The notes under the pieces: model-generated
What the model was told of the DNA's origin: nothing
Database searches by the model: none
Seen by the model: the letters and a program-made list of their open reading frames with translations, nothing else
Program-made: the position numbers and the translations under genes
Part shown: positions 1-4,340 of the stretch, in pieces
Position numbering within the stretch: position 1 is the first letter of the stretch
Layout of the letters: each line of letters begins with the position of its first letter
Source: an uncultured Pirellulaceae bacterium
GTDB taxonomy: Bacteria > Planctomycetota > Planctomycetia > Pirellulales > Pirellulaceae
Length of the DNA stretch: 64,000 nt
Direction: 5' to 3'
Assembly: GCA_905480235.1 (NCBI GenBank)
Contig: CAJQPP010000032.1
Span: forward strand, 4,127-68,126

Positions 1-438
1 GAGGGAAACCAACTGGGAGTAATTCCAACCAAAGACGCGCTGGCAAAAGCAAAAGATACCGGGTATGACCTGGTGGAAGTTGCACCGGAAGCCAAACCGC
101 CCGTCTGCCGTATCATGGACTATGGAAAGTTCCGATACGAAAAAAGCAAGAAGACCCAAAAGAGTAAATCCCACCAGACCAAACTCAAAGAGATCCGCGT
201 GCGGCCGAAAACGGGTCAGCACGATATTGATTTCAAAGTCAAGAAAGCCATCGGCTTTCTCCAGCACAAAGATAAAGTGCAAGTCACCGTCATGTTTCGC
301 GGTCGCGAATTAGCCCATATCGAAGAGGGGCAAAAAGTGATGGACGGCATCATTGCGATGCTGGACGAATACGGCAAAGTCGAAAGTCCGCCTTCCAAGC
401 AGGCGCGGCGGATGCATTGCACCATCGCACCTAAATAG
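1..438 (+). CDS. infC: translation initiation factor IF-3 (5' end outside window)
   Basis: Frame 1 is open from nt 1. The translation [51 protein letters not shown]...[25 protein letters not shown]...[16 protein letters not shown] matches the conserved IF-3 linker and C-domain pattern. The stop is TAG at 436-438. Confidence 0.93.
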
Positions 439-754
439 ACTTGATCGACGACAATACGATTCTCAGGATCGATGGATCTGAATTCACCAAGCCGCGGCGC
501 TCTATGCGTCGCGGCTTCGTTGATGGGGCCCCGCCCGTTCGCGTCAAACGTTTCGAAACGGCTTCCCTGCCGCCCGTCACCGCCGCTCGGACGATTCGTC
601 CGGAGCAGGCCTCCGTGGTGTCCCCAATTTCTGAACGGCCGGTGGAATAATCCGGCGATGTGTCCGGGGTGAATTGACGGTGTTGGGTTCGCACCGTCAT
701 CCGTTTCGCCCCTTGAAAAAAAAGAACCACTGGTTTAACGTCAATCATGCCAGC

Positions 755-975
755 GAAAAGGTGCTCTCGATTCCAGCCAGGAATTGGGAGGTAACAGGGA
801 ATCCAGTCCGATTCTGGAACGGCCCCGCCGCTGTAGGTGACAGACGTCCGGTTTTCTATTGCCATTGCATTCCTTAGGGGATGCGAGAAGGCACCGGAAT
901 TTCTTCTGGGTTTTTACGTGCATGTTTTGCACGCGAGGCCTCCGAAGCTGCATAAGTCAGAAGACCTACCTTTTC
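755..975 (+). promoter_or_regulatory. cobalamin (adenosylcobalamin/B12) riboswitch
   Basis: nt 792-836, AACAGGGAAUCCAGUCCGAUUCUGGAACGGCCCCGCCGCUGUAGG, fits the conserved core AGGGAA..GGU..A..CC..CCCGC.ACUGUA. nt 860-894, GCCAUUG...GGGGAUG..GAAGGCACC, resembles the GCCACUG...GGGAAGGC segment. nt 953-969, AAGUCAGAAGACCUACC, fits the B12 box (AGYCMGGAGACCKGCC). GGUGC (759-763) can pair with GCACC (890-894). CCUUUUC (968-974) is complementary to GGAAAAGG (1031-1038), which lies just before the ATG at 1039. The outer boundaries are approximate. Confidence 0.8.
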
Positions 976-1038
976 GTTTTCATGGCTGATCCTGCGCGGG
1001 TGGGACGCTGTGAGGTCATTTACTGATCCAGGAAAAGG

Positions 1039-1896
1039 ATGCGCGGTCGTCGATACGATCCGGTGCCTTTGAAAATATTTCGACCCCCTCAGGATTCGAT
1101 GCTGCGTTTATTGCGCCCAAGGTTTGCCTTCACACTTGTTGAGCTGCTGGTCGTCATCGGAATCATATCGATTCTGCTTGGTCTGCTTTTACCTGCGGTG
1201 CAACAGGTTCGTGAATCGGCACGCCGCACCGCCTGCTCCAGTCATCTCCGACAAATTGGCTTGGCTTTAGCAAACTATCATGCGACGTATCGAAAATTAC
1301 CGGTGGGTTGCATGGAGTGGCGCTCCGGTAGTGATCCAGGGCAACGCCAACTAGCTTGGTCGGCCCAAATCCTGCCTCAGTTGGAGCAGATTCCGCTGTC
1401 CCAACAACTCGACCTGGCTCAGGCTTTTGATTCATTGGAAAACCGGGTGGCGGCCGCCGTCACCGTGCCGGTTTTTTTGTGTCCTTCCTCCGCCGAGCTT
1501 GGCCGTGATTCTAAGCGGGGTCGAATTGATTACGGAGGCATTTACGGTGAACGAATCAGTGGGCCCAATAATCCACCCAAGGGAACGATGCTGATTGATC
1601 GCGCCATTCGATTTCGCGAAATCAGCGACGGCCTGTCGCAAACACTCGTGGTCGGTGAAGACGCCGGATGGTCGGATGGCGAATGGGTCAACGGACGCAA
1701 CATTTTTGACCAAGCGTTTGGAATCAATGCCGCCCCGGATTTTGAAAATGACCTGCGCAGCGACCATCCGGGCGGAGTTAACGTGCTGTTTTGCGACGGT
1801 CATGTGCGATTTTTGAGCGACGAATTTAATCTTAAAACGCTGGCTGCCATCTGCACGCGGGGCGGAAACGAAATCGTGAATCCCATGGACCAATGA
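1039..1896 (+). CDS. DUF1559 family pseudopilin-like protein (prepilin-type N-terminal cleavage/methylation motif and C-terminal H-X9-DG motif)
   Basis: The N-terminus ...RPRFAFTLVELLVVIGIISILLGLLLPAVQQVRESARRTACSSHLRQIGLALANYH is the typical type IV prepilin-like helix of DUF1559 proteins. The C-terminus HPGGVNVLFCDGHVRFL is the H-X9-DG motif. The ATG at 1039 is preceded by GGAAAAGG. An alternative ATG at 1099 would give a shorter, more typical leader (MLRLLRPRFA|FTLVE). Confidence 0.85.
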   Translation: MRGRRYDPVPLKIFRPPQDSMLRLLRPRFAFTLVELLVVIGIISILLGLLLPAVQQVRESARRTACSSHLRQIGLALANYHATYRKLPVGCMEWRSGSDPGQRQLAWSAQILPQLEQIPLSQQLDLAQAFDSLENRVAAAVTVPVFLCPSSAELGRDSKRGRIDYGGIYGERISGPNNPPKGTMLIDRAIRFREISDGLSQTLVVGEDAGWSDGEWVNGRNIFDQAFGINAAPDFENDLRSDHPGGVNVLFCDGHVRFLSDEFNLKTLAAICTRGGNEIVNPMDQ

Positions 1897-2756
1897 ACTT
1901 TTCTACATCTACTAATCAGGAATCTACAACTATGAATGTTTTAAGAACGGATAAGTCGATGGCGGTTGCCATCGCGACCACTTGCTTCGCATCGATTGCC
2001 TTTTTGCTAAACACGTCAGCGATTGTGCAGGCAGAGATCGTTGATTTTGAGGAATTAAATCTAAACCCTAACTCTTTTTTCGACGGCTATGGTGGCAATG
2101 CTCAGTCGGGTACTTGGACATCCGGTTCGGCAACGTTTAATACCAACCTGTTTGGGCCCGGCTGGAGTTATTCAAATGTCAATGATTCCACGACCGCCGG
2201 CTTTACCAATCAATGGGCTGCCTACCCGGGCACAGGTTTTGGCGGCAGCGGCAATTACGCACTCGCGAACTCTTTTGCTTCCAATGGTGCTTACATCAAT
2301 TTGTCACAATCGATGACTGCAATCGAAGTGCAGGTCACCAATTCCACTTATGCCGCACTTTCGATGCGTGACGGTGACGGTTTCGGAAAAATGTTTGGCG
2401 GAGATTCGGGGGATGATGAAGATTTTTTCACGGTGACCTTCACGGGTTTTTCCGGACTCAATAAAACGGGTTTGGAAACGGGTCGTGTCGATTTCTATCT
2501 TGCCGATTACCGATTCAGTGACAACTCGCAAGATTACATCATCGCAGATTGGAACGCGGTTGATTTATCCGCGCTGGGTACCGTGCAATCAGTCGCCATC
2601 GGATTGGCCAGCAGCGACAATGGCCAATTCGGGATGAACACGCCGTCCTATGTCGCGATCGACAGTTTGCGTTTCAATTCCGTCCCCGAGCCTTCTGGAT
2701 TCATTCTGGTACCGCTCGGCTGTGTGGCTCTGTTGAGGCGATCGAGACGTCGCTAG
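1893..2756 (+). CDS. secreted DUF4465-like protein with PEP-CTERM sorting signal
   Basis: It overlaps the upstream gene by 4 nt (ATGA). It has a signal/anchor segment (MAVAIATTCFASIAFLLNTSAIVQA). The body motifs are WSYSNVNDSTTAGFTNQW, GSGNYALA, VTNSTYAALSMRDGDGFGKMFGG, FYLADYRF, WNAVDLSALG and GMNTPSYVAIDSLRF, which match my recollection of DUF4465. The C-terminus VPEPSGFILVPLGCVALLRRSRRR is a PEP-CTERM motif followed by a TM helix and a basic tail. Confidence 0.7.
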   Translation: MNFSTSTNQESTTMNVLRTDKSMAVAIATTCFASIAFLLNTSAIVQAEIVDFEELNLNPNSFFDGYGGNAQSGTWTSGSATFNTNLFGPGWSYSNVNDSTTAGFTNQWAAYPGTGFGGSGNYALANSFASNGAYINLSQSMTAIEVQVTNSTYAALSMRDGDGFGKMFGGDSGDDEDFFTVTFTGFSGLNKTGLETGRVDFYLADYRFSDNSQDYIIADWNAVDLSALGTVQSVAIGLASSDNGQFGMNTPSYVAIDSLRFNSVPEPSGFILVPLGCVALLRRSRRR

Positions 2757-2948: not shown

Positions 2949-4340
2949 CTAGAAGCTACGTTCGATGCCACAAGTGAGACCGTGCAGCAGCAAGTTGCCA
3001 TTGGATTTCACCCGTTGTGTATCTTGGACATCCGTGTAGTAGCGAGGAATTTGATCGCCAGCCAGGGCGACGCCCGAGATACCGATGGCCCGATATCCGA
3101 GGTTGAATCTTGTGCAGGCGTTGAATTGATAATTCAATCCGAGTTCCAATTCACCCAGAGTCGAGACGTCCTTTTTGCGGGAAGTAAGCCAGTAATTGGT
3201 GTTACCTCCGTTCATGGTGGCAGTATTGCCAAGGCCGTCTTGGATGCTGTGGCGGGTGTAGGTGTCGTTGTTGTAAACACCAAACTTGGAACCCAGCGTA
3301 ATGGTCCAGCATTTACAGAGGCAGCGTTCCAGACGAGCTCCTAATTGCAGGCCCAGTAAATGGTTTTGAGCCAGCAAATCGTAATAGCATTCTTCGGGTG
3401 GGTTAGGCCCCGTGGCGGAGATACCTAGCTCCTCTTGAAAACTCATCCAGCGAATGCCGCCCAGCCATTCGAGGTTCATCGAATCTCCGAATAAACCACA
3501 AGTCGAACCGCCGTTACGCAGCAGGTTGAATTCCAGATTGTGAATTTCAGTTTCCCGCCTTAAACACCAATTGGTGGCATTATTCATGGCATCGTAAACT
3601 GAGACGCCTTCCAGATCGATGTTGGCGAGGCCATACAGATTCGAGTAGAGCGGAGCTCCTGAGAAACCGACGCAGGACGCTTCCGGGATCAGCCCCCAGT
3701 ATCCAAATTCCCATCCACGGCCGGTGCAGCCGCGATTGGAAATGGTGGCTTCCAGTCCGCCTAACCAATCATGCTGGGAGTCGGTGGAAAACAGCCAGTC
3801 ACCACTTGCGTTGTAACCCAAACTGATGTCGTCTTCGTAGTCACGTTCGAAAATCAGTGTGCGAACACCGACAACAATATTGCAGTCTCCCGAGTGAAGC
3901 ACGGAACCGATGCAGCACTTGCTGCAATTTCCGCAACCGCCGCATCCGGCGGTAGGTGCACACCCTCCACAGTTACCGGTGGCGCAACCGCCGCAGTTTC
4001 CTGTGGCACATCCCCCGCAATCGTCCGTAGCGCATCCATCACAGTTGTCCATCACAAACGGGCTTCCATCTACAACAACATCGTCCTGGACCGGTGGGCT
4101 GTTGTATTCCGACGGCGTCAACAAAGAAGGCTCGTCAATGGAGGGTTGTGGTGGTTCGGGAACCTGAGCATCACTGGGCGAGGCGGAGGGAACCGGCGTC
4201 TGGGGTGTCGCGTCCTGATAGGAGTAGCCATAAGACGAATAGTGAATGTTCGACTTTTGCTGAGCATGTGTCATTGCTACCAAAGAATGGCTTACGACAA
4301 TCGCCAATCCGGTTAACAAAATACGTTTCATCTGACTCAC
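2949..4340 (-). CDS. putative outer-membrane beta-barrel protein with N-terminal Pro-rich and Cys/Gly-rich repeat region (planctomycete BBP7-like)
   Basis: It has a signal peptide (MSQMKRILLTGLAIVVSHSLVAMTHAQ), a Pro-rich spacer and a CxxC-type repeat block. The C-terminal roughly 300 aa are rich in alternating aromatic/Gly segments (GWEFGYWGLIP, LELGLNYQF, FNLGYRAIGISG) and end in ...IERSF. A terminal Phe is typical of OMP barrels. Confidence 0.6.
   Translation of the reverse strand: MSQMKRILLTGLAIVVSHSLVAMTHAQQKSNIHYSSYGYSYQDATPQTPVPSASPSDAQVPEPPQPSIDEPSLLTPSEYNSPPVQDDVVVDGSPFVMDNCDGCATDDCGGCATGNCGGCATGNCGGCAPTAGCGGCGNCSKCCIGSVLHSGDCNIVVGVRTLIFERDYEDDISLGYNASGDWLFSTDSQHDWLGGLEATISNRGCTGRGWEFGYWGLIPEASCVGFSGAPLYSNLYGLANIDLEGVSVYDAMNNATNWCLRRETEIHNLEFNLLRNGGSTCGLFGDSMNLEWLGGIRWMSFQEELGISATGPNPPEECYYDLLAQNHLLGLQLGARLERCLCKCWTITLGSKFGVYNNDTYTRHSIQDGLGNTATMNGGNTNYWLTSRKKDVSTLGELELGLNYQFNACTRFNLGYRAIGISGVALAGDQIPRYYTDVQDTQRVKSNGNLLLHGLTCGIERSF
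3912..4043 (-). repeat. in-CDS tandem peptide repeat CGGCATGN (Cys/Gly-rich block)
   Basis: It encodes CDGCATDDCGGCATGNCGGCATGNCGGCAPTAGCGGCGNCSKCC. The adjacent 24-nt units differ at synonymous positions (tgc ggg gga tgt gcc aca gga aac versus tgc ggc ggt tgc gcc acc ggt aac). The peptide is therefore conserved, rather than the DNA repeat being recent. Confidence 0.85.

Follow-up and report, generated by a model that had tools for sequence, protein, structure and literature searches.

A cobalamin riboswitch-controlled DUF1559–DUF4465 gene pair in Pirellulaceae: a probable corrinoid-scavenging operon with a pilin-like protein in place of a receptor

The window analysed here is a stretch of 64,000 nucleotides (nt) from an uncultured Pirellulaceae bacterium (GCA_905480235.1, contig CAJQPP010000032.1, forward-strand positions 4,127–68,126), and coordinates given without a locus label are positions in this window. 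Between about 742 and 2863, on the plus strand, a cobalamin riboswitch precedes two genes, one for a prepilin-like protein of the DUF1559/HX9DG family (open reading frame 1, ORF1) and one for a DUF4465 protein resembling the BtuJ vitamin B12 binders (ORF2). The features of this operon are the following.

742–987, plus strand: cobalamin riboswitch aptamer (RF00174), matched over its full length by the covariance model; the minimum-free-energy (MFE) fold forms P1
988–1098, plus strand: leader and expression platform, from the aptamer to the probable start, holding ATG 1039 and AGGA 1091–1094
990–1005, plus strand: hairpin after P1 (UCCU, loop GCGCGGGU, GGGA), candidate P13/L13 kissing-loop partner of L5
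1099–1896, plus strand: DUF1559/HX9DG prepilin-like gene, 265 residues (ORF1); the alternative start ATG 1039 would give 285 residues
1932–2756, plus strand: DUF4465 (BtuJ-type) gene, 274 residues (ORF2), with a signal peptide predicted at its N-terminus, a beta-jellyroll domain at about 2151–2666 and a PEP-CTERM tail at 2682–2753; the alternative start ATG 1893 would give 287 residues
2834–2863, plus strand: terminator-like hairpin with a run of seven T, detected by a consensus scan only, which would end the two-gene transcript

An Rfam cmscan of the whole window returned a single match above threshold, the cobalamin riboswitch RF00174 at 742–987 on the plus strand (87.9 bits against a gathering threshold of 31.5, E = 2.4e-20, model positions 1–189 of 189). 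An earlier reading of this DNA, hereafter the original prediction, had recognized the riboswitch, and the core (about 789–837), the GCCAUUG...GAAGGCACC segment (861–895) and the B12 box (953–969, with AGUCAGAAGACCU at 955–967) indeed lie where it had placed them. The P1 helix, 755–762 paired with 968–975, is formed both in the covariance-model alignment and in the MFE fold, and a C-rich L5 loop at about 822–828 includes CCCGC. The assignment of the leader to the canonical class-I cobalamin aptamers is well supported. An ORF of 144 residues running antisense across the riboswitch (431–865, minus strand) is almost certainly spurious.

ORF2 matches PF14717 (DUF4465) over residues 87–258 with 158.5 bits, against a gathering threshold of 25, and its tail, VPEPSGFILVPLGCVALLRRSRRR, reaches 16.2 bits with the PEP-CTERM model TIGR02595 (cut-off 16), which upholds the identity first proposed for it as a PEP-CTERM protein of the DUF4465 family. 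The VPEP...RRR tail is kept in its homologues, P265, E266 and P267 being at least 90% conserved. By phmmer, ORF2 finds 9HMU, the structure of D5EK51 with B12 (PMC13398666), at 2.7e-17 and BtuJ1 (9FCT) at 2.7e-15. Two of its motifs, NSTY and NTPSY, line up with the B12-contacting residues Y146 (DE helix) and Y245 (HI loop, NTPAY) of BtuJ1; across the alignment of the DUF4465 family T250 and P251 do not vary, and the conservation of Y253 is 90% or more. The AlphaFold model (predicted local distance difference test score, pLDDT, 86) shows an augmented beta-jellyroll fold and superposes on B12 complexes with a template-modelling (TM) score of 0.75–0.80 in Foldseek (9HMU, E = 1.8e-17 and TM 0.78; BtuJ1, TM 0.75). 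By inspection and from the helix in the model, the protein begins with a hydrophobic signal ending in AIVQA/EIVDF (the slash marking the expected cut) and has no lipobox. That ORF2 is a beta-jellyroll protein of the BtuJ type, probably exported by Sec and with a PEP-CTERM sorting tail in place of a lipid anchor, is well supported, and both sequence and model indicate with high probability that it binds B12.

Binding of B12 by this family is itself established. In Bacteroides thetaiotaomicron, BtuJ1 and BtuJ2 are exposed on the cell surface, bind B12 with high affinity and come from riboswitch-controlled loci (PMC13398666; PMC13616437), and a 2026 study reported that B12 is bound by eight divergent DUF4465 members, including one from Mucisphaera (Phycisphaerae) and two verrucomicrobial proteins (PMC13398666). 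The novelty that had been seen in a DUF4465 B12 binder was thus already in print, a protein of a Phycisphaerae planctomycete included. The same study describes co-localization of DUF4465 with TonB-dependent barrels, plug domains, ATP-binding cassette (ABC) transporters and beta-propellers, and makes no mention of DUF1559, pilins or PEP-CTERM (PMC13398666).

ORF1 is matched by PF07596 (DUF1559, 178 bits), by the N_methyl model (24.9 bits) and by TIGR04294 (HX9DG, 43.8 bits against a cut-off of 19), so that its assignment to DUF1559 also holds; the HX9DG element, with the sequence H-PGGVNVLFC-DG, lies at about 1756–1818. Read from ATG 1099, the protein carries a prepilin leader of 10 residues (MLRLLRPRFA/FTLVELL), with Glu at +5 of the A/FTLVELL motif; leaders in other loci have 10–15 residues. 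The AlphaFold2 model (pLDDT 83.9, predicted TM score 0.82) consists of a 52-residue N-terminal alpha1 helix (residues 13–64) and a globular head, and both sequence and fold searches of the PDB lead to type IV pilins through the helix only. Matches to the curated pilin equivalogs stay below their cut-offs (28 bits against 88.85 for GspG, TIGR01710; 32 against 75 for ComGC, NF040999): ORF1 falls within no curated equivalog of pilins or pseudopilins, and its head matches no pilin-type fold. Judged from sequence and model, ORF1 is built like a type IV pilin and stands outside every characterized pilin family. A periplasmic-binding-protein fold, which the Pfam family name SBP_bac_10 would imply for DUF1559, was rejected, the AlphaFold2 model and Foldseek giving no such match.

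More than 120 homologues share 56–86% identity with ORF1; all have 250–328 residues, and most 260–290. Their alignment has a mean column identity of 65%; among its features are an unvarying Glu at +5, three cysteines that are likewise invariant, and the histidine of HX9DG.

For the comparison of loci, a scan with a DUF4465 alignment over one genome per species of the GTDB gave at least 591 confirmed loci, the best 80 of which were compared; individual loci are cited by L numbers. The closest relative, present on three contigs (L081–L083), has a DUF4465 protein 90% identical to ORF2 and the same gene order as the window, from thrS and infC to the extracytoplasmic function (ECF) sigma pair; a more distant one, L001, is 62% identical. 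These relatives help to place the starts of both genes. ATG 1893 is ATA in L081, where the DUF4465 gene starts at a GTG aligned with ATG 1932, nine bases past a conserved AGGA, and all close DUF4465 homologues have 274 residues and begin at the residue corresponding to M14 of the long form. The gene calls in L081–L083 are likewise of 265 and 274 residues with a spacer of 35 nt. By this comparison ORF2 probably starts at ATG 1932, about 35 nt after ORF1. The ATGA overlap (1893–1896), from which co-translation had been proposed, is present in the window and is not conserved, and coupling of the two genes through it was rejected.

The likely start of ORF1, on the same kind of evidence, is ATG 1099. 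In L081 the upstream ATG has lost its frame through an indel of 1 nt between 1039 and 1099, and the gene call begins at the counterpart of ATG 1099. The equivalent of ATG 1039 opens there an upstream ORF (uORF) of 21 codons (L081:6872–6937; MRGRRYDRATLKLSRPPRIRC and a stop), the TGA of which overlaps the DUF1559 ATG, and in the window (1039–1101) a 1-nt insertion fuses this uORF in frame with the DUF1559 gene. Neither the ATG nor the uORF has an equivalent in L001. The uORF could be a coupled leader peptide or the product of drift.

The association of the two genes with the riboswitch recurs across the Planctomycetota. Among 41 Planctomycetia-type loci, a full-length DUF1559 gene 34–64% identical to ORF1 (tblastn) adjoins DUF4465 in 22; several of the remaining contigs are cut short. 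The pair is carried by Pirellulales, metagenome-assembled genomes (MAGs) of Planctomycetaceae, Tautonia, Fimbriiglobus and Gemmataceae. In all 12 DUF1559–DUF4465 loci tested with Rfam, RF00174 heads the unit in the same orientation, and an nhmmer profile built from RF00174 elements found beside such units detects a riboswitch in 35 of the 41 loci, five of the six negatives having less than 1 kb of upstream sequence. Riboswitch, DUF1559, DUF4465 is the commonest order; in variants an additional PEP-CTERM protein is encoded ahead of the pair (L006, L014) or the two genes are reversed (L010). Many of the ORF1 homologues lie on contigs of the same lengths as those of the DUF4465 hits; of seven (57–63% identity) chosen independently from the others, six had DUF4465 immediately downstream in neighbourhoods that were otherwise unrelated, and neither a TonB-dependent receptor nor a linked ABC transporter was found around the DUF1559 loci looked up.

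In MAGs of Rubripirellula and Rhodopirellula, the riboswitch and DUF1559 are followed by a giant ORF of 1660–2020 residues (L063:3841–9885, L075:3703–8697, L058:2327–8251, L070:3793–9864). The two that were scanned, L063 and L075, combine the N-terminal motif Planc_extracel ('Planctomycete extracellular') with two or three DUF4465 repeats and a C-terminal dockerin and EF-hand. L052 has a second DUF1559, only 30% identical. It is well supported that ORF1 represents a tight subfamily encoded specifically and repeatedly with DUF4465 in a riboswitch unit, and the central proposal of the original prediction, a corrinoid-capture pair in which DUF1559 is the partner of DUF4465, gains strong support from comparative genomics. 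Of the conditions under which that prediction was to fail, those on the riboswitch match, on the DUF4465 assignment and on conserved linkage were all decided in its favour.

A few loci show peculiarities of their own. Upstream of the module in L090, and divergent from it, are two TadE-like pseudopilin genes and a VWA-domain gene (L090:2372–3296, minus strand), a single case that may be coincidence. A MAG labelled Alcaligenaceae (L041, CAZNSL010000137.1) contains a planctomycete-type module, probably through mis-binning of the contig, with a DUF1559 protein that shares 58% identity with ORF1. The DUF1559 gene beside DUF4465 in L037 (4911–5637) is split over three tblastn segments, being a pseudogene or an assembly error, and eight tRNA genes are clustered downstream of the module in L014 (8249–9313).

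What the planctomycete units lack is the component that accompanies DUF4465 in Proteobacteria. A Pfam scan of 33 ORFs of the window recovered housekeeping genes (dnaE, malQ, lpxK, an ECF sigma/anti-sigma pair, arginine decarboxylase and others) and neither a TonB-dependent receptor nor an ABC-type B12 transporter, in agreement with the absence of a BtuB/TonB-type gene that had been remarked for the operon. A TonB-dependent receptor (plug and barrel) adjoins DUF4465 in 17 of 18 proteobacterial loci and in none of the 41 Planctomycetia-type loci; DUF1559 is found in 0 of the 18. In both groups the DUF4465 protein shares 45–52% identity with ORF2 and carries PEP-CTERM. The proteobacterial loci often have another PEP-CTERM protein ahead, and RF00174 was present in the four tested. 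In the compared loci the DUF1559 partner and the TonB-dependent receptor are mutually exclusive. A divergent TonB-dependent receptor among the unannotated planctomycete neighbours was considered and rejected; the neighbours tested turned out to be a pyruvate phosphate dikinase-like enzyme, an aminotransferase, a squalene-hopene-cyclase-like protein and a pyrroloquinoline quinone (PQQ)-propeller protein.

A related arrangement occurs in Phycisphaerae, some unclassified Planctomycetota and one Akkermansiaceae MAG, in which a riboswitch, DUF4465, a BtuH-like gene of 300–440 residues and an HX9DG prepilin follow one another in this order. The BtuH-like genes of these Phycisphaerae-type and Akkermansiaceae-type operons are:

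L026:6825–8090
L060:6805–7713
L069:6781–7872
L034:6871–8190

The middle gene of L026, the only one used for a PDB search, matches the B12-binding domain of BtuH2 (7BIZ, 3.6e-11) and 8BLW_B ('YncE family protein', 1e-15), which indicates that BtuH-type binders occur outside Bacteroidota. The prepilin of these operons is homologous to the ORF1 subfamily over 206 columns that include HX9DG (hhalign probability 99.4%, E = 4e-21). With their BtuJ- or BtuH-like genes, three lineages of the Planctomycetes–Verrucomicrobia–Chlamydiae (PVC) group thus pair B12 binders with a prepilin of the DUF1559 type, in the place that BtuB takes in Bacteroides and Proteobacteria.

Other candidate parts of B12 units came to light in the same survey. 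PEP-CTERM proteins of 275–380 residues with no other Pfam domain are encoded inside B12-riboswitch units of planctomycetes and Betaproteobacteria (L006:4181–5053, L014:634–1545, L019:5169–5996, L020:4711–5847); those of L006 and L020 have no sequence match in the PDB, and these proteins might form a further component that binds corrinoids. An Armatimonadota (Fimbriimonadales) MAG has a riboswitch of a different class, AdoCbl-II (RF01689, 51 bits, L066:5119–5194), about 800 nt upstream of a DUF4465 match on the same strand, and the related L068 gives a weak prepilin N-terminal match. A 6S RNA gene is located near the DUF4465 operon of the proteobacterial locus L029 (3701–3883).

The leader itself suggests how the unit might be switched. 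The loop of the hairpin at 990–1005 contains GCGGG, complementary to CCCGC of L5, and hairpins with differing stems occur at the same offset in 39 leaders with loops holding GG in 33 and GGG in 24; since these hairpins were chosen for being paired, and L5 is invariant, the count is circular and we claim no covariation. A first automated test, which was too strict, gave 9 such hairpins where 1.5 were expected. The element is suggestive of the classical L5–L13 kissing-loop design. No intrinsic terminator was found in the leader 3' of the aptamer, the sole match in the leader (894–909) lying inside the aptamer, and the distance from aptamer to probable start ranges from 55 to 406 nt across loci. 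Masking of the ribosome-binding site (RBS) found no support as a platform: the long-range pairing of AGGA 1091–1094 with 989–1004 in the MFE fold is no better than in shuffled sequences (energy z = 0.49), and comparison of cognate with non-cognate duplexes across 15 loci gave p = 0.08, short of significance.

We propose, with a probability of roughly 0.6, that the locus is a self-contained corrinoid-scavenging operon under the control of a cobalamin riboswitch, in which a pilin-like protein stands in place of the receptor. When B12 is sufficient, the ligand would stabilize the L5–L13 kissing loop and shut the operon off, by premature (possibly Rho-dependent) termination or by occluded initiation; one or the other of these routes is likely because of the distance between aptamer and starts and because no terminator is seen, and the behaviour of other B12-uptake genes leads us to favour an OFF switch of this kind. 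Under B12 shortage the binder would be exported and would capture corrinoid outside the cell. Its export is suggested by the PEP-CTERM and dockerin tails and the extracellular motif, and by analogy with ZepA, a PEP-CTERM protein shown experimentally to be an exported zinc scavenger (PMC10957091). The DUF1559 protein would be processed by prepilin peptidase, become part of a type IV filament or pseudopilus or attach to one, and serve as the cell-side partner, receiving the loaded binder or its B12 and bringing the cargo through the outer membrane, a step that a TonB-dependent receptor performs in Proteobacteria and BtuB–BtuG in Bacteroides. Transport across the inner membrane would be encoded elsewhere.

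We infer this hand-over of corrinoid across the envelope from the genomic context, and it is the better motivated because the linkage of DUF1559 is mutually exclusive with TonB-dependent receptors. A role of the pilin-like protein in import on the cell side also fits the pili-like fibres of planctomycete crateriform structures, which bind dextran before its internalization (PMC5394234), and a substrate-induced PulG-like pseudopilin, with 67 paralogues, in an alginate locus of a verrucomicrobium, for which its authors invoke lyase export by a type II secretion system (T2SS) (PMC13274419).

Several observations weigh against this proposal. The window contains no gene for pilus or T2SS machinery, a secretin, a prepilin peptidase or an exosortase, and the head of ORF1 has no significant relative among solved structures (best Foldseek E about 0.5, confined to the helix). 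Because PEP-CTERM proteins are initially anchored to the inner membrane, the binder might act in the periplasm alone. Eight Pirellula-type loci from MAGs have riboswitch and DUF4465 and no DUF1559; conversely, the sole exception among the seven independently chosen homologues, L089:4001–4828 (59% identity with ORF1), lacks DUF4465 as well as any detectable riboswitch. The DUF1559–DUF4465 pairs of L055 and L085 show no riboswitch at the Rfam gathering threshold. The tests of the expression platform gave z = 0.49 (989–1004 with the AGGA region) and p = 0.08 (15 loci). Finally, the comparison covered loci, not whole genomes, and BtuB may be encoded elsewhere in these planctomycetes. As to the surroundings of the exceptional loci, a sigma-70 gene ends 72 nt before the DUF1559 gene of L089, DUF1559 is directly adjoined by a further ORF in L055, and only 215 nt separate the pair of L085 from a catalase-peroxidase-type gene.

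The pilin-like protein might serve secretion and not import: as a cargo-specific, T2SS-like pseudopilin it would push the DUF4465 protein through the outer membrane, B12 entering by another route. The N-terminus of ORF1 does match GspG, GspH and ComGC models weakly, the proteins it partners are extracellular, either large or anchored, and end in a dockerin or PEP-CTERM, and the verrucomicrobial alginate locus offers a precedent in which T2SS export has been invoked (PMC13274419). However, proteobacterial and cyanobacterial PEP-CTERM DUF4465 proteins, at 45–52% identity, have no pilin partner, some planctomycete DUF4465 genes lack DUF1559 in cis, and what vanishes where DUF1559 appears is the importer, not an exporter, which makes this role unlikely. 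That the complementary distribution concerns an outer-membrane component also argues against a quite improbable periplasmic role, in which DUF1559, tethered to the inner membrane, would be a BtuF-like B12 acceptor or a partner of the anchored DUF4465 protein and would feed an inner-membrane transporter. The family name SBP_bac_10, the architecture of both proteins before processing (one membrane helix and a periplasmic globular part) and the lack of filament machinery encoded nearby would suit such an acceptor; yet the modelled head has neither a periplasmic-binding-protein fold nor a significant PDB match, and no ABC transporter is linked in the loci looked up. Chance adjacency of one of many paralogues, conceivable in view of the 68 DUF1559 paralogues of P. 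limnophila (PMC10632474), is effectively refuted by synteny, for in several planctomycete orders the riboswitch unit contains the same subfamily (45–86% identity) and no further gene is conserved beside it.

The direction of the switch deserves the same scrutiny. The original prediction had CCUUUUC sequester an RBS in the presence of B12 and so turn the operon off. This heptamer, which lies at 969–975, one base off the position first given, is indeed complementary to GGAAAAGG (1031–1038), and is itself the 3' strand of P1, paired with GAAAAGGU at 755–762. Its pairing with 1031–1038 would consequently occur in the ligand-free state, the opposite of the logic proposed. The RBS concerned is moreover the wrong one, that of an ATG (1039) out of frame in the 90% relative L081, and two of the seven pairs are lost there without compensation; the sequestration model was rejected on these grounds. 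The same complementarity could serve an ON switch, in which 969–975 masks the RBS of ATG 1039 (as start of the long form or of the uORF) without B12 and P1 frees it with B12. The complementarity of 7 nt is real, and ATG 1039 is kept in L081, where the stop of the uORF overlaps the DUF1559 start in a manner suited to coupling. Against it stand the pairs lost in L081, the absence of an equivalent ATG in L001 and the fact that what is conserved beyond P1 is the G-rich hairpin, not the 969–975/1031–1038 pairing. Known B12 uptake genes, besides, are repressed by B12. An ON switch is accordingly very improbable, and repression by B12 through premature termination or control of initiation is the direction we favour.

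The proposed scavenging operon resembles several known systems in part. With the Btu relay of B. thetaiotaomicron (BtuJ/BtuH/BtuK to BtuG–BtuB) it shares the riboswitch, the DUF4465 fold and the same two tyrosines, and a BtuH-type binder is found in its Phycisphaerae-type relatives as well (PMC13616437). It differs in having no BtuB, BtuG or lipoprotein anchor, a PEP-CTERM or dockerin tail taking the place of the latter, and in consisting of two genes of which a DUF1559 prepilin-like protein is the conserved partner. Proteobacterial loci such as L020 of Methyloversatilis (riboswitch, PEP-CTERM protein, PEP-CTERM DUF4465, TonB-dependent receptor) share riboswitch, DUF4465 and tail; there the TonB-dependent receptor is present and DUF1559 absent, whereas in the window the reverse is true. 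ZepA is likewise an exported binder of a scarce nutrient, built from a signal peptide and PEP-CTERM and with a similar phyletic spread. In the HasA–HasR hemophore system, an exported binder returns the nutrient to a TonB-dependent receptor. The receptors of the ZepA and HasA systems are TonB-dependent whereas the candidate here is pilin-like, and there is no relationship in sequence or fold.

Uptake by type IV filaments, known from competence pseudopili such as ComGC and from type IV pilus retraction through a secretin, offers the closest parallel for the pilin-like protein. ORF1 has the class III signal, the Glu at +5, the long alpha1 helix and N-terminal matches to ComGC and GspG, and the concept, outer-membrane import driven by a filament and not by TonB, would be the same. 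It differs in lying far below the equivalog cut-offs, in a head unrelated to solved pilins, in the lack of linked machinery genes and in its cargo, which would be a vitamin or a vitamin–protein complex and not DNA. Within the DUF1559/HX9DG family of the PVC group ORF1 is a full member (PF07596, TIGR04294), set apart by a short (about 260–280 residues), tightly conserved subfamily with B12 as ligand context.

Downstream of the operon, the next gene (2949–4340, minus strand) encodes a porin-like protein of the BBP7 family and is convergent, with its own terminator. It was considered as a third component and set aside, being convergent, separately terminated and adjacent only in relatives at least 90% identical. 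The N-terminal part of its product contains a Cys/Gly-rich run in which CGGCATGN is repeated.

The cobalamin riboswitch and the binding of B12 by DUF4465 are already known. What appears new, and is unreported in the searchable literature, is a conserved, riboswitch-controlled DUF1559 partner standing in the place of the TonB-dependent receptor. In the literature searched, no paper links DUF1559 or prepilins with cobalamin, there is no discussion of TonB in planctomycete uptake, and the four papers that mention DUF1559 all describe it as a large family of unknown function; P. limnophila alone has 68 paralogues, two of them essential, with no known function (PMC10632474). The pairing described here provides the first ligand-specific handle on this very large family, and the riboswitch is an unusually clean functional label, since the subfamily is made in response to one small molecule and beside a binder family of shown activity. 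It makes approachable both the function of DUF1559 and the question of how large solutes pass the planctomycete outer membrane without an obvious TonB-dependent step. It also extends the DUF4465 scavenging family to a form anchored by PEP-CTERM or dockerin and independent of TonB-dependent receptors, which is abundant in environmental metagenomes and relevant to B12 cycling in marine and fresh waters. We suggest tentatively, as a possibility well short of probable, that the expanded DUF1559/HX9DG family of Planctomycetota and other PVC bacteria may comprise cargo-specific subunits of a TonB-independent import driven by type IV filaments, may correspond to the substrate-binding fibres of the crateriform structures, and would have in the B12-linked DUF1559 its first member with an assigned ligand. 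If this is true, the DUF1559 protein under the B12 riboswitch would do what is done elsewhere by BtuB and other TonB-dependent receptors.

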